In this document: positions 8 through 50,103 of the stretch, piece by piece
Layout of the letters: every line of letters starts with the position of its first letter
How positions within the stretch are numbered: position 1 is the first letter of the stretch
The notes under the pieces: model-generated
What the model was told of the DNA's origin: nothing
Databases searched by the model: none
The model's input: only the letters and a program-made list of their open reading frames with translations
Made by a program: the position numbers and the translations under genes
Assembly: GCA_044359815.1 (NCBI GenBank)
Contig: JBIKLL010000009.1
Coordinates: forward strand, 1-62,773
Length of the DNA: 62,773 nt
From: Pseudobdellovibrionaceae bacterium
GTDB lineage: Bacteria > Bdellovibrionota > Bdellovibrionia > Bdellovibrionales > Bdellovibrionaceae
Reading direction: 5' to 3'

Positions 8-113
8 AAATGACTCAACACCAGATATGCCCCGCACGCTCGCTGCATGTGTCTAAAAACAGTAAAAACAAATTACCTTTGCCTTTATGCAATACGAGAG
101 ATGAGCTTGCGGT
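8..113. repeat. Family A palindromic element, right half (cut by window start)
   Basis: 103/106 nt identical to 16437-16542; contains motif Q (aaatgactcaacaccagatatgcc...) and partial motif P' (caatacgagagatgagcttgcgg). Confidence 0.9.
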
Positions 114-221
114 TCGTCCGCAATTTCTTCAGGATGATTTAAATTTTTTTGGCAGATCATGGATTGGCTCTAGATTACTTGATTTTAGTCCTGTTTGTTT
201 ATGTGACACTCAATCCAAAAA

Positions 222-360
222 CTAAGGTTTCTTTTTTTAAGTATCTAATTTCCTTAAAAAGGTCCTCTGCGGAGCCTGGACGGCGGGGGCCTGCCCGAGC
301 AGAGAAGCACGAGCTGTGACCTTTTTAAGGAAATTAGATACTTAAAAAAAGAAACCTTAG
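222..360. repeat. Family C palindromic element, copy 1
   Basis: Perfect 43-bp inverted arms 222-264/318-360 around a 53-nt GC-rich core beginning ctctgcggagcctggacggcgggggc, shared with 16631-16699. Confidence 0.92.
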
Positions 361-520
361 CTCTTGTATTACATGTCCATCCTTAAAAAACTTTTCCTAA
401 AATGATAAAATCTAGAGCTAAGGCCAGGCTCTGTTTAACATAATTCAGCTGAAGAATTCAGGACCTGATTTTTTGGGACAAAGTTCCGTTAAGAAGATGT
501 ATCCACACAGAAAGTTGGTT

Positions 521-15204: not shown

Positions 15205-16251
15205 ATGAAGGAAATCTGTTCTGCATTATTAAAGTCAGCAATGACCCTGATCATTTTGATTGGGTTGGTTGGCAAAGCTCAAGCTTCTGGAAATTCCCAG
15301 TTATCAGCACCCACTGGCTATTCGACTGTTAAACCCAAGTCTTCTGCAGCAAAGGCCTCAGTTGCCAAAAATTCTGAAAGTCTGTTTGCTGAAGTGATTA
15401 AAAAATCTCAGGACAGCCAGACAGATGCTTTAATGATCTATCAAGACGGCCAAGTGGTTTATGATTCGCATAGAATCAATCCCAACATTCCCATCAGTGT
15501 CCAAAGCATTACAAAAAGTCTGATAGCCATTGCGATTTTAAAATTGCTCGAAGATAAAAAAATCCCTAATTTGGATCTGCCGATGTATCATTTTATCCCT
15601 GAATGGTATCAAGACTCTGACAGGCAAAAAATCACCGTTAAAATGTTACTGAATCACACCAGCGGGATTTGTGACTGCGATGGTTTTTTAAAACAACCTG
15701 ATTTTATTCAGTTTGCCAAAAAAGCCCCTTTGCAATTTAAGCCGGGGACCGGATTTTTATACAGCACCGTGGCTGTGGCTTTACTGGAGCGAGTGATCAC
15801 CAGGGTAACCCACGAACCTGCCGAATATTATATCCAACAAAATATTTTATCACCCCTAGATATTTCAGGTGTTGAATGGAACTATGATGAAAACAATCAC
15901 ATTCAAGCAGGTGGTGGGATGTTTGCAAGCCCCCGTGATTTGCTTAAAATCGGTGTGATGTTGGCTAATCAGGGTGTGTATGCACAGCAAAGAATTTTGT
16001 CTGAAGCTTCAGTGAAATTACTGTCTACCAAAAGCCAACCCTTTGAAAACTATGGTTTGTTATTTTGGCTTTATAAATCTGCAGGTTCTGAAAAATCTGA
16101 TGTTTTTGCAGCCAGGGGGTATGGCGGCCAATATATCTTGGTGAACCCTTCAAAAAAACAAGTCATCGTCAGGGTTAAAGACCCCAGAAAAATCAGCACT
16201 CAAAACCTCTCTCAAACCGAGTTCCTAGAGCTCACCCAATTAATGCCCTAG
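15205..16251 (+). CDS. Secreted serine hydrolase, beta-lactamase class C-like family
   Basis: SITK (SxxK), LLNHTSG, FKPGTGFLYS, GYGGQ. Confidence 0.9.
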   Translation: MKEICSALLKSAMTLIILIGLVGKAQASGNSQLSAPTGYSTVKPKSSAAKASVAKNSESLFAEVIKKSQDSQTDALMIYQDGQVVYDSHRINPNIPISVQSITKSLIAIAILKLLEDKKIPNLDLPMYHFIPEWYQDSDRQKITVKMLLNHTSGICDCDGFLKQPDFIQFAKKAPLQFKPGTGFLYSTVAVALLERVITRVTHEPAEYYIQQNILSPLDISGVEWNYDENNHIQAGGGMFASPRDLLKIGVMLANQGVYAQQRILSEASVKLLSTKSQPFENYGLLFWLYKSAGSEKSDVFAARGYGGQYILVNPSKKQVIVRVKDPRKISTQNLSQTEFLELTQLMP

Positions 16252-16294
16252 CCCCACAGTTAATAAATTTTTCCTGCAGGCCAGCTTCGCCGTA

Positions 16295-16542
16295 TCTCTC
16301 GTGTTGCGTAAATACAAAGATAATTTTTTTCACTATTTTTAGACACTCGCTAACGGCCGCGGGCTCATCTCTCGTATTGAGTCATTTAGATTAATCAGTC
16401 TTACGATAAATAAATTATCATAAAACTTATTAATCTAAATGACTCAACACCAGATATGCCCCGCACGCTCGCTGCATGTGTCTAAAAACAGTAAAAACAA
16501 ATTACCTTTGCATTTACGCAATACGAGAGAAGAGCTTGCGGT
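16295..16542. repeat. Family A palindromic element, copy 2
   Basis: Outer arms 16295-16346/16478-16530, motif P 16347-16387, inner stem 16377-16409/16415-16447, motif Q 16437-16477. Confidence 0.92.
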
Positions 16543-16565
16543 CCAGATAACAAATTTTAAATTCA

Positions 16566-16764
16566 GATCTGACTCAATTTTTAGAAGCTAAAATTAGAAA
16601 TCTAAATATTCTATTTTGTTAAAATTGGGCCTCTGCGGAGCCTGGACGGCGGGGGCTTGGCCCGAGCAATGAGATTGGCGATTCGAAATCAAGAGCTGTG
16701 CCCGATTTTAATAAAATAGAATATTTAGATTTCTAATTTTAGTTTCTAAAAATTGAGTCAGATC
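16566..16764. repeat. Family C palindromic element, copy 2
   Basis: 65-bp arms 16566-16630/16700-16764 (62/65 complementary) around core 16631-16699. Confidence 0.92.
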
Positions 16765-16787
16765 CAGGAAAGACTTGATCTGTGGGA

Positions 16788-17888
16788 CTAGACATTGAAT
16801 TTGAAAAACATGATGTCGCCGTCTTTGACGACGTATTCTTTGCCTTCTGATCGGTATTTACCGGCTTCTTTGACAGCTGATTCAGATTTCAGAGCAAACA
16901 GTTCATCGCAGTGATAGGTTTCTGCTCGTATAAAGCCCCTCTCGAAATCAGTGTGAATCACACCGGCTGCTTGAGGCGCTTTGTAACCCTTGCGGATGGT
17001 CCACGCGCGGACTTCTTTTTCACCAGCGGTGAAATAGGTGTATAGGCCTAATAATCTGTAAGCTTCCATTATTAATCGGTGCAAACCAGGTTCTTTAGCG
17101 CCCATAGAATCCAAAAATTCCTTTTGTTCATCAGGCGCCAATTGGGCAATTTCTGCCTCCATCGCCGAACAAATAATTAGAGCCAAATTGTTTTCTTGCT
17201 GAGCTCTTTCAAAAACCTGTTTTGTCCAGGCATTGCCTCCTGATTGAAAATCCGAATCTGAAACATTGCAGGCATACAAAACTGGTTTTGATGTCAGCAA
17301 ATGCAGCTCTTTAACAAAGGGCAATTCATGTTCGTTCGCATCCACGCTCCGGGCTGGCAACCCCTTTGCCAAGGCTTCTTGCAAACGCTTGGTCACATCG
17401 TATTCCATTTTAACTTTGGGTTCAGTGGACGACTTAGCGGTTTTTTCGATGCGCTTTAATTTTTTATCAACAGTATCCAGATCAGCCAACATCAGTTCGG
17501 TATTGATGATTTCCATGTCTCGGACAGGATCGACGCTGCCGTTGACGTGAACAATATTAGGATCATCAAAACATCTGACAACGTGAACAATGGCATCTGT
17601 TTGTCTGATGTGACTTAAAAATTGATTGCCTAAGCCTTCGCCTTGGCTGGCGCCTTTCACAATTCCTGCGATATCGACAAATTCAATAATGCTTGGGATG
17701 GTCTTTTGCGGTTTTATAAAATGAGTGATCTTTTCAAGTCTTTGATCTGGCACATTCACAACCCCCACATTGGGATCAATGGTGCAGAAGGGATAATTGG
17801 CGGCCTCGGCCTTGGCAGAAGTCAATGCATTGAACAACGTGCTCTTACCAACATTCGGCAATCCTACGATACCCACTTGCAGTCCCAT
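16788..17888 (-). CDS. ychF: Redox-regulated ATPase YchF
   Basis: GIVGLPNVGKSTLFNAL, NYPFCTIDPN, YVVKDGD; start at MGLQVG. Confidence 0.97.
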   Translation of the reverse strand: MGLQVGIVGLPNVGKSTLFNALTSAKAEAANYPFCTIDPNVGVVNVPDQRLEKITHFIKPQKTIPSIIEFVDIAGIVKGASQGEGLGNQFLSHIRQTDAIVHVVRCFDDPNIVHVNGSVDPVRDMEIINTELMLADLDTVDKKLKRIEKTAKSSTEPKVKMEYDVTKRLQEALAKGLPARSVDANEHELPFVKELHLLTSKPVLYACNVSDSDFQSGGNAWTKQVFERAQQENNLALIICSAMEAEIAQLAPDEQKEFLDSMGAKEPGLHRLIMEAYRLLGLYTYFTAGEKEVRAWTIRKGYKAPQAAGVIHTDFERGFIRAETYHCDELFALKSESAVKEAGKYRSEGKEYVVKDGDIMFFKFNV

Positions 17889-18477: not shown

Positions 18478-19212
18478 TTATTTCTTGTCTTCTTTTTTAG
18501 CTTCAGGTTTTGCACCAGCGGCAGGAGCAGCAGCACCTGGTTTAGCACCAGCAGCAGCGCCCGGAGCGGCGGCACCAGCAGCAGCGGCAGCATCTGGAGT
18601 CGCAGCAGCGGCGGCGTCACCAGTAGCAGCAGTAGCTGTTGTAGTAAGAGATTCCTCTTCAAACAGATTCACAACCGCAATTGTTGTCTGCGGGGTTGAA
18701 AGCAATTTCACACCTGCAGGGATTGTCAAATCAGACACGTGAAGAGCATCGCCAACACCTAAATGAGAAATATCAGCAGAGAAGTTTTCTGGGATTTCCG
18801 TTGGTAAACATTCAACCTCAACGGTTCTGTTAACCACGTTTAACAAACCACCTTCAGCCAGACCCAACGGCTTACCTGACAATTTAACCTCAACAAAAAC
18901 GCGAACGGCTTTTTTCAGATCCAATGCAAACAAATCTACATGCAATGGGATTCTGGTAACTGGATGAACATTGACGTCTTTCATCAAGACAACAACGTTG
19001 TTCAGTTCTGAATCTGGGCTTTTAAGGTTAAACAAAGCATTGTCATATTGAGAGACATTGAATTTTTTAACGGAATTTTCATCGATCAGAATATTTTTAT
19101 TTTTAACTGAACCATAAACCACTGCTGGAATTTTGCGGCTGCGGCGAAAAGCGCGGCTGTTGTGTTTTCCTATTTCACGAGCTTCAACTGTTAAATCAAA
19201 TCGCTGAGACAT
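18478..19212 (-). CDS. rplY: 50S ribosomal protein L25/Ctc
   Basis: IPAVVYG, HPVTRIPLHVD; prs-rplY-pth synteny; Ala-rich tail. Confidence 0.95.
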   Translation of the reverse strand: MSQRFDLTVEAREIGKHNSRAFRRSRKIPAVVYGSVKNKNILIDENSVKKFNVSQYDNALFNLKSPDSELNNVVVLMKDVNVHPVTRIPLHVDLFALDLKKAVRVFVEVKLSGKPLGLAEGGLLNVVNRTVEVECLPTEIPENFSADISHLGVGDALHVSDLTIPAGVKLLSTPQTTIAVVNLFEEESLTTTATAATGDAAAAATPDAAAAAGAAAPGAAAGAKPGAAAPAAGAKPEAKKEDKK

Positions 19213-24395: not shown

Positions 24396-24531
24396 TAACC
24401 GAAAAGAGACCGTACGACTTTTTCTGTCTACGGTGCGAAAAAAGCCAAACGATGATTAAAAAAGTTAATCGTTTGGTTTTTTTATTTTTCGCACCGTAGA
24501 CAGAAAAAGTCGTACGGTCTCTTTTCGGTTA
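24396..24531. repeat. Family B palindromic element, coreless short copy
   Basis: Perfect 47-bp arms 24396-24442/24485-24531 with aaaagagaccgta...tttttctgtctac; small inner stem 24445-24453/24468-24476. Confidence 0.92.
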
Positions 24532-30231: not shown

Positions 30232-30267
30232 TTATTTTTGATTCTTAAACAAATCTAAAAATATCGG

Positions 30268-30296
30268 AAGGCTGGGGTGACCCGGCCTTTTGTTTT
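30268..30296 (+). terminator. Rho-independent terminator
   Basis: aaggctggg-gtga-cccggcctt followed by a T-rich run. Confidence 0.8.
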
Positions 30297-30851
30297 ATCA
30301 AACGCAAATTGGCAAAATGATTTTTCGGTAAAATTCAATATTTAAAATATAGGTCCCTAAATTCCACTCCTTGTGAACACATTTGCGAGCGCGCATGGCA
30401 TATCTGGTGTTGAGGCATAATTTAAAAGCGCAATTTGTAACTGAATCTGATTTGCTTTTCTGAGTCCAGAATTTGTATTTTTAAATATGGTTATATTTTT
30501 TATACCTTGTGAATACTTGCTAACGGCCGCAAGCTCATCTCTCGTATTGAGTCATTTGGATTAAATAGGTTTATGATTAATTATCATAAACCTATTTAAT
30601 CCAAATGACTCAGCACCAGATATGCCATGCGCGCTCGCAAATGTATTCACAAGGTATAAAAAATATAACCATATTTAAAAATACAAATTCTGGACTCAGA
30701 AAATAACCCTTGATTGATTAATTGTTTTTAAGCTGATGACTCAATACGAGAGATGAGCTTGCGGCCGTTAGCAAGTGTTCACAAGGAGTGGAATTTAGGG
30801 ACCTAAATTTTGAATTTTACCGAAAAATTATTTTGTCAGTTTGCGTTTGAT
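30297..30851. repeat. Family A composite: outer element (Q'...P') containing an inner element of opposite orientation
   Basis: Outer arms 30297-30342/30806-30851 (4 mismatches) and perfect 30350-30380/30775-30805; Q' 30381-30418; P' 30736-30774. Confidence 0.92.
30456..30703. repeat. Family A inner element (P...Q)
   Basis: Perfect 61-bp arms 30456-30516/30643-30703; perfect 30-bp inner stem 30548-30577/30583-30612. Confidence 0.93.
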
Positions 30852-32856: not shown

Positions 32857-33918
32857 ATGTCTGTGGATTCACTGCTGAAATTCATTTTTAACCACAACAC
32901 TGCCATTATTGAGGTGTTGATTGCGCTGACCGCCTTGGCGGCCTTATTTTTATCCTTCAGATCTTTTATGACTCAGGATACTGGCGGTGGGGATTTTTCA
33001 AAGCTTGAAGAAACTTTGAAAAAGCTCTTAGAAAAAGCTGGCACAGTGACTGCCAAGGCTCCGGTTGGGGCTTCTGCCGCGGCGCCGAGTTCTGAAAGCG
33101 GAAATCTGCTGGCTGAAATTTCGACCCTCAAAACAGAGCTTGAAGACAAAAAGAAAATGATCGATGAAATTCAAAAATCTGCTGAAGGCGGTAAGGGCGC
33201 TGGTGCTGGAATTTCGCCCGAAGAAAAATCAAAACTGGAAGCTAAAATAAAAGAGCTTGAAGGCAAGCTGTCAGAATACGAAATCATCAGTGAGGACATC
33301 GCTGATTTATCAAAATACAAAGAACAAAATGTTAAATTAAAAGCTGAACTGGAAGATCTGAAGAAAAATCAAACAGCAGCGCCAGCGGCCGCACCTGCAC
33401 CAGTGGCACCAGCACCGGTGGCACCCGCACCAGCACCAGTTTCTGCGCCTGCGGAAGCTCAGCCACCAGCGGCTGCCCCTGAGCCCGTAGCTGCGGCGCC
33501 TGTTCAACCTGCCGCCGCGAGCCCTGCTCCTGCTGCTCAGGCGACAGATGCTGGCAGTGTGGTCGACGATGATTTAATGAAAGAGTTCGCTGCTGCCGTT
33601 GAAAATCAGAAAAAAACTGAATCAGAACAAAAGGCAGCTCCCGCTCCAGCCGCAGTTGCGGCTCCAGCAGCTGCGCCAGCCGCAGAACCAGTGGGTGAAA
33701 TTGATCTAGGCGCTATGGATGTTGATAAAATGGCCGCAGAGGCTGCTAAAATCACAGACACCTCTGGACCAGAGATTTCGTTTGAAGAGGCCGTTGGCAC
33801 AAATTTGAACGAAGACAAATTGTTAGCTGAAGCTTCTGGGATGGAAGGCACTAGTTTGGCCGAGGAAAAAAAGCTTTTAGGTCAGTTTGAAGATTACGTT
33901 AAAAAAAACCAAACTTAG
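32857..33918 (+). CDS. Membrane-anchored coiled-coil, Pro/Ala-rich hypothetical protein
   Basis: N-terminal TM, coiled coil, APAP low-complexity linker, acidic tail. Confidence 0.75.
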   Translation: MSVDSLLKFIFNHNTAIIEVLIALTALAALFLSFRSFMTQDTGGGDFSKLEETLKKLLEKAGTVTAKAPVGASAAAPSSESGNLLAEISTLKTELEDKKKMIDEIQKSAEGGKGAGAGISPEEKSKLEAKIKELEGKLSEYEIISEDIADLSKYKEQNVKLKAELEDLKKNQTAAPAAAPAPVAPAPVAPAPAPVSAPAEAQPPAAAPEPVAAAPVQPAAASPAPAAQATDAGSVVDDDLMKEFAAAVENQKKTESEQKAAPAPAAVAAPAAAPAAEPVGEIDLGAMDVDKMAAEAAKITDTSGPEISFEEAVGTNLNEDKLLAEASGMEGTSLAEEKKLLGQFEDYVKKNQT

Positions 33919-39054: not shown

Positions 39055-40392
39055 ATGACACTGATTGGATTATGGCTTTTTATTTATATTCAGTATAAGC
39101 ACTTGCCCCTGGCCGCGGCGGCAGAGGTTGCTGTGCCTGTTGGTCAATCGCAGAGTCAATCCCAGCAGATCACTGAAATCAACAATGCAGACCTGGAATC
39201 CATTGGTCCTTTGTTGTTTCAAGGCAGAACTAATTATTGTTATTCGTATGTGGCGGCGGATTTGATCAGTCAAGAATTAGGCGAACGGGTTTCGCCGGCG
39301 CAATTGGCGCTGACCTATCAGACATTTAATTATCAAAAAAATAAGCACGATACCACTGGCGAAATTGCTCTAAAGGGCAATGGGGGATCAGCAACCAGAG
39401 TCATTGAAATGATTCGCAATAGGGGATTTTGCAAGGACAGTGATCAGTATTCAAGATATTTTCAAACATGGATCGAAAAGCCCAAAAAATTTGCCTTACC
39501 AGATCCCCAGATTCCACCTGTGCAATTCAGAGCCAGAGTTTTTGAAAATGTCAGAGTGTTAGTTTCAAATAAAAATTATTTACGGCAGGTTGATCATCTG
39601 GGAACAGATTGTCGGATTTTAAACTTTGCAAAAAGCAACAACAAGTCTGCAGCTATTTATGAAACCTATTATCAATGTGCAAGCTTGCTTAAAAGCCATG
39701 ATGACCAAAGCCGGTCTGCGGGTACCCAACATCAAGGGGTAAAATTAATCGGGCCTGTGCCTTGGTTTGAAGGTGATTCGCAAGCGGGTGGCAGAGTGTG
39801 GCAATCAGGTCATTACATTGTGATGCCGGAGTCGCAGGATTTGCAGAGTCTTTTGCAGCAGGATTTACCAGAGCCTTTTAAGGGTTACACTTTGATTCAA
39901 ATAAACAGCAGCGGGGCTGGTCGACAAATTGCCAGCGTCACAGAGTCAGATGACGAAGCTGTTGGCATTTACACTCCATTTAAGGCAGTGGGATCGCGCA
40001 AAAATAGAGGTTCAGATTATTTTCCGGATAATGGCCAGGTTGGCAAATACAGTATGTTAGTGAATTCTTGTCAGCAAAAACTGTGGTTACCAGAAACAGT
40101 AAAAATAAATTTAAAATGTGATTTTGCAAAGCAAGGATCCCTGCAGACACACAACTCAGATTCTATTTTAGGAAATTTAGACAGATTGTTGGAATCAGGA
40201 AAAATCGTGGGATTTAGCCACAAAGCTACCGAGATGAATCACATCATCACAGTGATTGGCCGCAAATGTTCAGGGTCAAAACCCAGTGACTGTGTGTATA
40301 CGGTCAGAAATTCAGCCCAACCCAACGAAAAATTTAAAACCGCAGAATTCATTCTGCAAAAAGGCCTTTGCCTGTCCTGGCTGCAAAAGTGA
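39055..40392 (+). CDS. Putative papain-fold cysteine peptidase
   Basis: QGRTNYCYSY, HIITVIGR and VRNS match Gln/Cys/His/Asn of C1-like peptidases. Confidence 0.65.
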   Translation: MTLIGLWLFIYIQYKHLPLAAAAEVAVPVGQSQSQSQQITEINNADLESIGPLLFQGRTNYCYSYVAADLISQELGERVSPAQLALTYQTFNYQKNKHDTTGEIALKGNGGSATRVIEMIRNRGFCKDSDQYSRYFQTWIEKPKKFALPDPQIPPVQFRARVFENVRVLVSNKNYLRQVDHLGTDCRILNFAKSNNKSAAIYETYYQCASLLKSHDDQSRSAGTQHQGVKLIGPVPWFEGDSQAGGRVWQSGHYIVMPESQDLQSLLQQDLPEPFKGYTLIQINSSGAGRQIASVTESDDEAVGIYTPFKAVGSRKNRGSDYFPDNGQVGKYSMLVNSCQQKLWLPETVKINLKCDFAKQGSLQTHNSDSILGNLDRLLESGKIVGFSHKATEMNHIITVIGRKCSGSKPSDCVYTVRNSAQPNEKFKTAEFILQKGLCLSWLQK

Positions 40393-40696
40393 CCGTATTA
40401 CTTTTTCTGTCTACAGCGCAGAATTGAAATCGAAAACCTAGAAAACCAAAATGCCACTTATAAATCTAATTTTACTTTGCAATCTTAAAAACTCAAACAG
40501 CGGGCGCAAAGCTGCGCGCATTTAAGTGCTGAAAGCATGTAAGTCATCCGCGCAGCTTCGCGTCCGAACTCGTTTTTAAAACTGCAAAGTAAAATTAGAT
40601 TTATAAGTGGCAACTTGGTTTTTTAATCTTTAAGACTTTTTATTCTGCGCTGTAGACAGAAAAAGTAATACGGTCACTTTTGACGGTCACTTTTGC
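40384..40696. repeat. Family B palindromic element, full copy
   Basis: Perfect 41-bp terminal IR 40384-40424/40642-40682, perfect 30-bp middle arms 40452-40481/40583-40612, core 40480-40584, 13-nt terminal duplication 40683-40695. Confidence 0.93.
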
Positions 40697-44674: not shown

Positions 44675-47191
44675 TTAAAAGTATTGTGTTTCATCAATGA
44701 TCCATCGCATGTTTCGATCTTCGTCTTTTCCTAATTTAAGCAGTACATCTTGAATTATTGGATCTTGCGAGTTGCTGGCTCTGAGTGCTCTGGTGGCAAT
44801 ACTGCTAATATTTAAGTCCGCATCATATACTCGTGAAAGCAAAGCTTTCAGTATTCTTGGGTCTTGCGATTTTCTATTTCCAAGTGTTTTGGTTGCTGAA
44901 AAGCGAATGTATTGATGGGGATCCTTTGTCGAAATAAGCAGAGCTTCCAAAACTCTTGGATCTCGCGAATTTGAAATTGCCATGGATCTGAGTGCTGCTA
45001 ATCTTACTTCGTTATCACTATCTATCATCGCATCAAGCAGAGCTTCGATTATTCTAGAATCTTGTGATTTCCATTCTCCAAGAAATATTATTGCGTTCCT
45101 GCGAACAACACGTTCACTTTTATCTTTGAATGCAACAAGCATTGCCTCCAAAACCCTTGGATCCTGCGATTTGCTATTTCCAAGTATCCAGCATGCTTGC
45201 ACTCGGTTGGTTCCATCTCTATCCTTCATCGCCACCAGCAAAGCGTCCATAACTCTTGGATGTTCGGTTCCAAATGCGCCAAGTCCTACGATGGCCATAA
45301 AGCGATCTTGTGGTAAATTGCCTTTCGCAATAGCCAGCAGGGCTTCCAATACTCTTGTGTCTTGAAATTTGATTTCTCCGATTGCTCTTAATGCCGTCGC
45401 GCGAACAATGCCGTCGCTATCTTTAGTTGCATCGAGCATTGCCTCAAACACTCTTGGGTCCTGTGATTTGCTATTCCTAAGTTCATTGGTAGCCGTCTCT
45501 CGAACACGATCACTATAATCCTTCATCGCAGCTAGAAACACTTCCATAACACTGTCGTTTAAAATGATAAACTCACTCAGCAGACGCAATGCTCTTACTT
45601 GGGTTTGCTGGGTTTTTGAATAATCGTAACTACGGCCAGAAGTCTTTATCAGATCAACAAATCTTGTCCTGCTTGAAAAATTTGATTTTCTCTTTTGGGC
45701 ACTTGGATTTCCGCCAAGAGCTAAATTTTTTAAAAGATCGATATCTTCAGGATGCTCATTAAGCCGTTGCTTAATAATCCCGTCGATTCTGGGATCTCGG
45801 CCATATCCAAAACCCTCGATATTGCCATTGATTTCGTATATAAATTCAATTTCTTGATGACTGAGGGGCTTTTGGTTTTTGTGCTTTTTCTCAATGGCTG
45901 TCAGCATTTTCATATCGGCATCTTTTTTTAAATAGATTTTTCCCTCATTTCCAAAATCCTTTAATTTATCTTTTAAAATATTTGTTTTCGCAATTTCACC
46001 ATCAAGCTCTTGTGACCGTTCAACACCCCGAATTTCTCCGATTTTTGTATTTTCCATTCGGATCGCGATGCGTGGATGTGCGGGTTCCCCGGTAACATCG
46101 TTGCTATAATAAACATAAAAATCACCACGCATCAGCTGCGATTCCGCTGTTGCTGTCCCTGCCGTGCACCAACCTGTGCCCCTATTGGCCAGGGAATCCT
46201 CTAGCGGTTTGGGATCAGATCCCATCGGATATTTTACCCAATGGCCAGTGGTGATGGATTTATCAAAATGCTGACTAGGAAGCTGTTTGATCGCGTGGGC
46301 ATACCAATGCCCAAACTGCGCTTTGTTTTTAATGATATTGATCAATTGAGGACCTTCAGTTTGTTTTAACGTATTTTTATCCAAGGCTTCTGCAGCCCAA
46401 TCAACAACATTGGCTAAGGCCTCAATTTGCTTTAACGTATCTTTATCCAAGGCTTTTACAACCCAATCAACAACATTGGCTAAGGCCTCACGATTTAAAT
46501 CCGGAAAGGCCGCCACTGTGTCATTTGTACGCTTAGCAAAGCTGCCTTTTTCTTTATCGAATTTTCCTAATTTAACAACTCCACTGATGATCCAAACTTT
46601 CGTCCACACAGGGTACATACTTGAATCGGACGACAGCAAATAATCAATCCAGGGGGTTAATGAATCTATTTGTTCCTTTTGATGCATCCTTAATAACTGA
46701 TCGATAGCCTCTTTGGTGACAGTGATATCACCGTGTCCGCGTTCACGAGCGATTTGCTTTTGCAGTTCAATGTATTTTTCTGGTAATTCCTGGATGATAT
46801 AGGGGGCGATCATGGACTTTGTGATCTGCTCGCGCTTTTGATCATTCTTGCTCACTCGTGGATAAATGTAATTTAAATAGTCGATGTATTTTTGGAAAGC
46901 CGTCAACGGATCAGCTTCCCTTTTGCCAGAGGCATTTGCTGCAACTTCGACAACTTTTTTTTCGCTGATCAGCTTTGGGCTGGTTTCAAATAAAAACCTT
47001 GCCTGGTCCCTGTTGGTGCCCTCGGCAAATGCCCCATGGCATTTACTGAGTTGGGTTTGCGCGACCACTGGTGATCCCAGACCTAATAAAATCACAACCT
47101 GTGACATTGTGACCAAAATTGTTCGACACCTGTTATTTAACAACAAATTAAACCTCAGTAAAATGAATCTAAACCATGCTAAAACGCTCAA
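44675..47191 (-). CDS. Large hypothetical protein: conserved 'GTGWCTAG' domain plus C-terminal HEAT repeats
   Basis: GTGWCTAG...FYVYYS...PRIAIRM...EIRG; about eight SQDPRVLEAL...D.D..VR repeats. Confidence 0.75.
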   Translation of the reverse strand: MSVLAWFRFILLRFNLLLNNRCRTILVTMSQVVILLGLGSPVVAQTQLSKCHGAFAEGTNRDQARFLFETSPKLISEKKVVEVAANASGKREADPLTAFQKYIDYLNYIYPRVSKNDQKREQITKSMIAPYIIQELPEKYIELQKQIARERGHGDITVTKEAIDQLLRMHQKEQIDSLTPWIDYLLSSDSSMYPVWTKVWIISGVVKLGKFDKEKGSFAKRTNDTVAAFPDLNREALANVVDWVVKALDKDTLKQIEALANVVDWAAEALDKNTLKQTEGPQLINIIKNKAQFGHWYAHAIKQLPSQHFDKSITTGHWVKYPMGSDPKPLEDSLANRGTGWCTAGTATAESQLMRGDFYVYYSNDVTGEPAHPRIAIRMENTKIGEIRGVERSQELDGEIAKTNILKDKLKDFGNEGKIYLKKDADMKMLTAIEKKHKNQKPLSHQEIEFIYEINGNIEGFGYGRDPRIDGIIKQRLNEHPEDIDLLKNLALGGNPSAQKRKSNFSSRTRFVDLIKTSGRSYDYSKTQQTQVRALRLLSEFIILNDSVMEVFLAAMKDYSDRVRETATNELRNSKSQDPRVFEAMLDATKDSDGIVRATALRAIGEIKFQDTRVLEALLAIAKGNLPQDRFMAIVGLGAFGTEHPRVMDALLVAMKDRDGTNRVQACWILGNSKSQDPRVLEAMLVAFKDKSERVVRRNAIIFLGEWKSQDSRIIEALLDAMIDSDNEVRLAALRSMAISNSRDPRVLEALLISTKDPHQYIRFSATKTLGNRKSQDPRILKALLSRVYDADLNISSIATRALRASNSQDPIIQDVLLKLGKDEDRNMRWIIDETQYF

Positions 47192-49745: not shown

Positions 49746-50103
49746 CAAAAAGAGACCGCAAAAAGAGACCGTACAGCTTTTTCTGTCTACAGAGCGCAAT
49801 AATAAAAAACTGAAAAGCCATAATTCTGTTTATAAAAATAATCTATATTCACAGTTTTAAAAACGAGTTCGGACGTTAAGCTGCGCGGATGATTTACATT
49901 CTTTGATTACATAAATGCGTGCAGCTTTACGCCCGCTGTTTGAGTTTTTAAGATTGTGAATATAGATTATTTTTATAAACGGAATTATGGCTTTTCGGGG
50001 TTGTTGTTTTATTATTGCGCTCTGTAGACAGAAAAAGCTGCACGGTCTCTTTTTGCGCTGTAGACAGAAAAAGCTGCACGGTCTCTTTTTCGGTCTATTT
50101 TTG
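49746..50103. repeat. Family B palindromic element, full copy with core inverted relative to the 40.4 kb copy
   Basis: Terminal IR ~49759-49807/50007-50055, middle arms 49812-49853/49955-49996, core 49852-49956 (95/105 identical to reverse complement of 40480-40584), terminal tandem duplications. Confidence 0.93.

Follow-up and report, generated by a model that had tools for sequence, protein, structure and literature searches.

Two long-hairpin intergenic repeats with a common GC-rich centre and paired changes in their arms in a contig of a Pseudobdellovibrionaceae bacterium

REP elements carry a 5′ GTAG-type signature and are targeted by IS1397 and ISPpu9. REPINs are mobilised by a cognate RAYT encoded in the genome; their hairpin base consists of a conserved inverted pair of REP units, the middle is variable, and the copy number is in the tens to hundreds per genome. 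PMC3116915 describes how, in the less conserved middle, compensatory changes, said to be “common”, preserve the hairpin, and PMC3184786 reports a bias of REP elements for sites between convergent genes, the REP elements of P. syringae being located near convergent 3′ ends. MITEs and the ERIC, Correia and bcr1 elements are about 100–300 bp in size, AT-rich, non-coding, intergenic and able to fold back. What defines a MITE is the conservation of its terminal inverted repeats from copy to copy, together with direct target duplications. For bcr1, a double-stranded structure kept through compensatory base-pair changes is mentioned in PMC3184786. Regarding the processes that act on arms, template-switch mutations extend arm identity in short quasi-palindromes of yeast (PMC3820800), and gene conversion between inverted-repeat arms was described for long inverted repeats in C. 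elegans (PMC1803023).

The two hairpins described here, referred to as Family C (copies 1 and 2, at loci 1 and 2), were found in contig JBIKLL010000009.1 of an uncultured Pseudobdellovibrionaceae bacterium, whose 62,773 nucleotides were analysed as a whole and are called the window below. Each of them belongs to a pair of paralogous long-hairpin intergenic repeats of about 190–260 bp, joined to a block of 106 nt (Table 1). The initial annotation, made from the sequence alone, had pointed to a feature which is real, non-random and rightly located, and which it over-interpreted. The REPIN is the closest precedent: both are non-coding intergenic hairpin repeats with GC-rich conserved modules, arranged in mosaic clusters, and in Family C the variable arms also keep their pairing by compensatory changes (22 of 65 pairs). 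They differ in layout, as what is conserved in Family C is one non-palindromic centre, and what varies is the 65-bp arms, with no inverted REP units at the base. Two copies are present in the 62.8 kb of the window. The resemblance to MITEs lies in the small size, the fold-back structure, the absence of coding capacity, the AT-rich arms (25–28% GC) and the intergenic position of all loci. In contrast to the conserved terminal repeats of MITEs, the arms are only 54% identical between copies, and inspection by eye revealed no target-site duplication at either copy, the GATC present on both sides of copy 2 belonging to the palindrome. Stems that are perfect yet differ between the copies would be explained by a process at the DNA level that equalises the two arms, such as quasi-palindrome correction or gene conversion of one arm by the other. 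The class is an already known one, that of intergenic palindromic mosaic repeats, of which the arms evolving together make a notably clean case here.

Table 1. Position of the hairpins, the upstream block and the related palindromes in the window.
Feature	Position	Strand	Remarks
Outer degenerate 5′ pairing layer, copy 1	164–188		partner 397–421; 25 nt, 80% complementary
5′ arm, hairpin copy 1	205–264		inner 43 nt (222–264) perfect
3′ arm, hairpin copy 1	318–377		pairs with 205–264
Outer degenerate 3′ pairing layer, copy 1	397–421		partner of 164–188
GC-rich asymmetric centre (“core”), copy 1	265–317	+	53 nt, 72% GC
5′ arm, hairpin copy 2	16566–16630		65 nt, 95% complementary
3′ arm, hairpin copy 2	16700–16764		partner of 16566–16630
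GC-rich centre, copy 2	16631–16699	+	69 nt, 61% GC
Conserved 106-nt block before hairpin copy 1	8–113	+	97% identical to 16437–16542
Second copy of the 106-nt block	16437–16542	+	right arm of W plus 12 nt
Variable linker, copy 1	114–204	+	114–168 without counterpart in copy 2; 169–193 aligns loosely with 16543–16567 (MAFFT)
“W” palindrome adjoining copy 2	16295–16530		centre near 16412
Q box, left arm of W	16328–16385	−	box alignment
P box, right arm of W	from 16439		box alignment
Giant palindrome, 555 bp	30297–30851		carries 4 P/Q boxes
Family 2 foldback	40384–40682		conserved base, AT-rich neck, 79-nt GC-rich head
Family 2 foldback, inverted	49757–50057		opposite orientation to the 40384–40682 member
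Family 2 coreless relative	24396–24531		short central hairpin between T runs

Arms and centre of the two hairpins

The stem lengths given in the initial annotation were confirmed: copy 1 showed 43 perfect base pairs (222–264 with 318–360) and copy 2 paired over 65 nt (16566–16630 with 16700–16764) with three mismatches. The stem of copy 1 actually reaches 60 nt when complementarity is allowed to fall to 90% (205–264/318–377). The view that these stems are unrelated did not survive their alignment. Anchored on the core and compared without gaps, the arms agreed at 35 of 65 positions, as colinear diverged homologues do, against 19.9 ± 3.6 positions in shuffled sequences, and none of 20,000 shuffles gave a value as high. 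The agreement was specific to one register, with 32 matches out of 60 at register 0 and 12–26 at the 24 other registers, and the identity dropped to background outside the 65 nt. Four other AT-rich necks, taken as controls, gave 13–20 matches (three over 60 positions, one over 47). A global alignment of the arms with free ends detected no signal (score of 4.0 versus 3.0 ± 1.8, with 661 of 2000 shuffles being as good) because of its low power, and it is superseded by the anchored test. When the arms and the linker were compared with the window, nothing longer than 12–15 nt was found except the partner of each arm. By this alignment, the two hairpins are copies of one ancestral hairpin; two copies with arms aligning as diverged homologues is precisely the outcome which the initial annotation had named as contrary to its own reading, and it was the one observed within the window.

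The divergence of the arms, estimated from the anchored identity, amounted to about 0.76 substitutions per site, with almost no pairing lost. Thirty of the 65 pairs were unchanged and 22 had changed on both sides, being Watson–Crick in both copies. Three further pairs involved G-U, in copy 2 only, and ten, situated in the outer part, were paired in copy 2 and mismatched in copy 1. Since copy 1 is also mismatched at one of the three G-U positions, its unpaired positions amount to 11. RNAalifold found changes on both sides in 24 of 66 pairs on the plus strand and in 23 of 63 on the minus strand, all of them in the arms. Flips from A-T to T-A, for which no wobble intermediate exists, made up 13 of the 22 double changes; such flips are the most visible change in an AT-rich stem whatever the mechanism. 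G-U pairs were distributed without strand bias across the 12 long stems of the window, whose 607 pairs comprised 569 Watson–Crick pairs, 13 G-U on the plus strand, 14 G-U on the minus strand and 11 others. The three mismatches of copy 2 were G-U on the plus strand, and four of the six of copy 1 were G-U on the minus strand. Stepwise selection on an RNA made from one strand would leave wobbles on that strand, so that the lack of bias reads as upkeep at the DNA level. This is not decisive, since strict Watson–Crick pairing would be maintained as well if both convergent transcripts relied on the hairpin.

The centres are GC-rich, in contrast to the arms (28% and 25% GC in copies 1 and 2, respectively) and to the window (41%). 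The identity of 26 nt previously noticed at their beginning (265–290 and 16631–16656, both on the plus strand) was found to be free of mismatches, and the exact identity between the two cores is longer, spanning 28 nt (263–290). Only these two matches to the 26-mer existed in the window at up to three mismatches, and none of 100 shuffles gave two. As annotated, the cores then continue in both copies with GCCCGAGCA, which is separated from the 28-nt run by one substitution and one 1-nt indel, followed by a variable piece (9 nt versus 24 nt) and by GAGCTGTG. The heads are flanked by A4–5 on the 5′ side and T4–5 on the 3′ side, which makes a T run on either strand. At the rate of change of the arms, an identical run of 28 nt would have a probability of about 0.54^28 = 3e-8, and the centre is therefore either constrained in sequence or recently homogenised. 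Of the initial proposal of a conserved loop on an interchangeable stem, the first half stands, as the centre has an identical run of 28 nt where the arms differ at 46% of their positions and is thus conserved to a far greater degree, and the second half falls with the homology of the stems.

The core was compared, in both orientations, with the P/Q boxes and with the head and base of family 2 described below, and no score exceeded that of shuffles; by this comparison the centre is unrelated to the other GC-rich modules of the contig. A covariance model of the two cores, each taken with 20 bp of its stem, was run against the window without filters. It revealed no third copy in the window, the two training copies scoring 137 and 112 bits, and its remaining matches were other AT-rich hairpins, alike in score on both strands.

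The upstream block and the other palindromic repeats

A block of 106 nt, overlooked in the initial annotation, precedes both hairpins, at 91 nt from the arm at locus 1 and 23 nt at locus 2, and 103 of its 106 positions are the same at the two loci. At locus 1, where it is cut by the contig start, it opens with a “P box” (from about position 10), which an AT-rich spacer separates from half a “Q box”, the first one (87–113). The P and Q boxes measure about 50 nt, are GC-rich, about 70% alike, and both begin with ATGACTCA. Seven boxes could be aligned: one at locus 1, two at locus 2 and four in the giant palindrome. In all three complete palindromes a P box on one arm is mirrored by a Q box on the other, and this opposition of P to Q creates a heterologous patch of about 19 nt within an otherwise well-paired stem. 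The best partners in the giant palindrome are not the mirrored ones, as P− and P+ are 94% complementary at a distance of 186 nt and Q− and Q+ 98% at a distance of 180 nt, forming two interleaved doublets. Such inverted doublets, 94–98% complementary and 180–186 nt apart, constitute an additional likeness to REPINs. The necks of W and of the other P/Q palindromes are specific to their locus and 89–100% self-complementary. The right end of the giant palindrome (30804–30851) overlaps the 3′ end of an ispA-like gene (stop at 30828), and a canonical terminator-like hairpin (30265–30292, 12 pairs followed by a T run) is found just after the DUF4360 gene, 4 nt before this palindrome. The motif TGACTCAA was present 12 times in the window, for 2.8 expected, and none of 100 shuffles had as many. 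Seven of the 12 occurrences coincided with the start of a box or with an outer end of hairpin copy 2, and a motif resembling it is all that the outer ends of the two hairpin copies have in common. The families may have in it a common motif for junction or recognition.

An open reading frame in the block (MTQHQ...) was considered as a coding sequence and rejected, as the two copies differ in it at three sites, each with an amino-acid replacement, and a stop codon occurs early in the homologous Q box. Used as a protein query, this spurious frame matched six metagenomic ORFs at 69–92% identity on contigs of 503–3037 bp, and in the alignment of eight sequences 22 of the first 24 residues were invariant. 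A profile of the eight sequences retrieved five representatives, three of which were already known, one being a further truncated copy and one a weak match (P0129, E 1.4e-4). The latter, a predicted protein of 207 aa, is a tandem array of four 53-aa units; another organism may have a related tandem repeat in its DNA, of which this would be the translation. The recurrence of the block translation in short metagenomic contigs indicates that the block is a repeat present in multiple copies and in multiple genomes. Examined by eye, the tails of four or five of these ORFs appear to run into a full Q box and one into P-Q-P; on this by-eye reading, the block at loci 1 and 2 would represent a P/Q array that breaks off within the Q-box hairpin, where the Family C hairpin has been joined on. 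No clear translation of the core was seen by eye in the tails, that of P0123, rich in G/P/R, being ambiguous. Like the centre, the block, including its AT-rich spacer, is either constrained or recently homogenised: its near-identity and that of the centre, beside arms at 54%, could result from recent gene conversion between the loci instead of function.

A second family of foldbacks consists of two members in opposite orientations and a coreless relative. Its base is conserved over 46–51 nt, with a partial tandem duplication at 50001–50089, and so is its 79-nt GC-rich head. In the neck, 36 of 54 positions were identical (0 of 20,000 shuffles as high) and 14 pairs had undergone double changes, the neck being still paired. 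The same build is therefore met in three families, and a GC-rich conserved piece set in AT-rich self-complementary DNA is a rule of this contig, not a peculiarity of Family C.

The gene content of the window is chromosome-like (che operon, radA, ychF-pth-rplY-prs), and the window looks like ordinary chromosome. No transposase, reverse transcriptase or Cas domain was detected in its 52 ORFs of at least 120 aa, and the same 52 ORFs of the window were devoid of a RAYT domain. The identity of YchF to other proteins was at most 86%, its named relatives being from Pseudobdellovibrio, Bdellovibrionaceae or Oligoflexia MAGs. Hairpin copy 1 is at the contig start, upstream of the cheA operon, and not visibly at a 3′ end; the 3′ arm of copy 2 lies 24 nt from the ychF stop codon (16788, minus strand). 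At least seven long hairpins were counted inside the contig, in intergenic spacers, one of them overlapping a gene 3′ end by 24 nt. Palindromic repeat elements occupied all five convergent (3′-3′) spacers of more than 100 nt in the window, and a long inverted repeat was present in none of the 11 other spacers of that size. Accordingly, all fully seen element loci (n = 5) were between convergent genes. Family C and the P/Q family are parts of a nested palindromic repeat mosaic which fills the 3′-3′ spacers. The contig begins about 9 nt before the 106-nt block, and the assemblies of this lineage are probably broken by these repeats, related block ORFs being found on contigs of 0.5–3 kb.

A 20-mer of the core was searched in 185,579 species genomes and gave 21 loci with nothing alike beyond the 20-mer; all were in genomes of 64–76% GC, which makes them chance matches. 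Family C was thus not found in these genomes at the level of an exact 20-mer. With blastn in “distant” mode, both loci had no match in phages, nor did locus 2 in plasmids. No account of these repeats was found in the literature on Bdellovibrio-like bacteria or in that on hairpins with a conserved loop and a variable stem.

Possible origin and role of the element

We propose, giving it about an even chance, that the element is a fold-back DNA repeat of the REPIN/BIME/MITE kind whose arms are held complementary by correction within the element and whose centre is a sequence-specific site. Observed directly are that the arms are homologous and have changed in pairs, that centre and block are conserved, that the build recurs and that the elements lie in 3′-3′ spacers; DNA-level correction, a protein handle and mobility are what we infer. 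In this model, the arms of each copy would be kept Watson–Crick by correcting one arm against the other at the DNA level, by way of an intrastrand hairpin or a cruciform, or through a template switch, in the manner of quasi-palindrome correction or of gene conversion between the two arms. Arms corrected in this manner would drift in sequence without loss of pairing. The GC-rich centre, being non-palindromic, would have no partner for correction, and would have stayed unchanged because it carries sequence-specific information. Most likely it would be the recognition site of a protein spreading or maintaining the family, following the logic of REP/RAYT or MITE/transposase. As a side effect, the palindrome of 2 × 65 bp would gain from the centre an asymmetric spacer of 53–69 nt. 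A role as a hairpin at the mRNA 3′ end of the flanking convergent genes would be secondary, if any.

Such a role could on the other hand be the primary one, the element acting at the RNA level as a bidirectional terminator or a 3′-end protective hairpin for convergent genes, with both transcripts needing the stem. The short distance between copy 2 and the ychF stop codon, the convergent genes around all five fully seen loci, the T run available on either strand next to the heads and the coreless relative of family 2, a short hairpin between T runs, fit this explanation, and PMC3184786 describes a pneumococcal element, SPRITE, with a terminator-like motif and a bias for convergent-gene 3′ ends. 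We nevertheless consider it unlikely. Intrinsic terminators combine a G+C-rich stem and a short loop with an immediately adjoining U run, at the 3′ end of a gene. A terminator consensus scan called neither hairpin, the “loop” of 53–69 nt would be closed by just four G-C-rich pairs ahead of the T run, stems of 43–65 bp far exceed the needs of a terminator, and copy 1 is upstream of an operon. Stems of such a length are, as RNA, expected substrates of RNase III. In addition, the canonical terminator located 4 nt before the giant palindrome implies that the palindrome is unneeded for termination there. It is also conceivable, with a probability that we place clearly lower, that the core is a tiny mobile insertion into the exact centres of pre-existing, unrelated host palindromes. 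Once the core is removed, both sites do read as perfect palindromic centres (GGTC/GACC and GGGC/GCCC), and PMC12288879 reports P. putida copies of ISPpu9 inserted in REP sequences. However, the arms are homologous in one register relative to the core, and since the linker and the upstream block are common as well, the whole unit was duplicated and not the core alone. The core itself showed neither a target duplication nor terminal repeats.

Slimmer still is the chance that we give to the reading of the initial annotation, a structured non-coding RNA with a stem free to vary in sequence and a loop that serves for recognition, as a CsrA/RsmA site, or for catalysis, as a ribozyme. It draws on the much better conservation of the centre relative to the arms, and on the mini-hairpin GCC-UGGAC-GGC, which places a GGA in a small hairpin loop as in CsrA/RsmA RNAs and which was present in the minimum-energy fold of copy 1 and in the consensus of the minus strand. 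CsrA/RsmA-binding RNAs usually need many GGA sites. Each core has two, only one of them in the mini-hairpin loop, and that in some folds only. No Rfam family reached its gathering score over the whole window, and at E-values up to 10 (in 1–500 and 16250–16800) there was no Csr/Rsm and no ribozyme family. The sub-threshold matches in these two intervals were mostly generic long-hairpin models, chiefly microRNA precursors, with a few weak sRNA, lncRNA and cis-regulatory models, all far below the cut-offs; at the E-value level on four stretches, nearly all matches were again generic hairpin models under the cut-off. Three of the four core folds tested were no better than shuffles (z-scores of fold energy of −0.96 and +0.35 on the plus strand, −2.27 and +0.40 on the minus strand). 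RNAalifold applied to the two copies showed no covariation inside the core, and every predicted core pair was invariant, which is evidence neither for nor against a catalytic module. The lack of strand preference of the G-U pairs also goes against an RNA selected as such. In sum, nothing shows that the GC-rich centre is a CsrA site or a ribozyme. A retron partner was sought too, since in retrons the non-coding RNA adjoins a reverse transcriptase gene: the genes downstream are cheA for copy 1 and ychF for copy 2, and the window contains no reverse transcriptase domain. A further reading, which we regard as highly improbable, is that the element is transcribed into a long-hairpin RNA, or extruded as a hairpin of single-stranded DNA, whose conserved GC-rich apical module is gripped by a dedicated protein, with the fast-changing, perfectly paired arms as a payload of free sequence. 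If true, the arms could for instance be the source of variable small duplex RNAs, and bacteria would have here their counterpart of a hairpin cassette with “constant loop, programmable stem”, the three families being versions of one such system. The least probable explanation, to which we give hardly any weight, is a fold-back chimera produced during metagenomic assembly. Copy 1 is indeed at the very start of what seems to be a whole metagenomic contig; against this, at least seven long hairpins are inside the contig, in intergenic spacers apart from the one overlap with a gene 3′ end, and no assembler could generate the paired changes that distinguish the members of a family.

If the reading as a corrected fold-back DNA repeat is right, Family C provides a clean natural example of palindrome arms evolving together beside a centre and a block that have hardly changed, with “structure kept” separated from “sequence kept” inside 200 bp, and the centre would be the part to test for a binding protein. 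No long-standing question is opened by this finding. On the practical side, the repeats probably break the metagenomic assemblies of a little-studied predatory lineage and yield spurious small ORFs.

Coding repeats of the contig

Repeats of another nature were present inside genes. GC-rich repeats coding for Ala/Pro were located at 18512–18613 and 33373–33687. The first is in the gene of the ribosomal protein L25/Ctc, where the frame on the minus strand gives a long C-terminal tail rich in A/P/G/K, and the similar Ala/Pro repeat is in an ORF (32857–33918) without Pfam match. A gene of 838 aa with HEAT repeats (44675–47191, minus strand) showed a tandem periodicity of 99 nt (44738–45553) and, at 46356–46487, a tandem duplication of 66 nt in exact register, with 91% identity.
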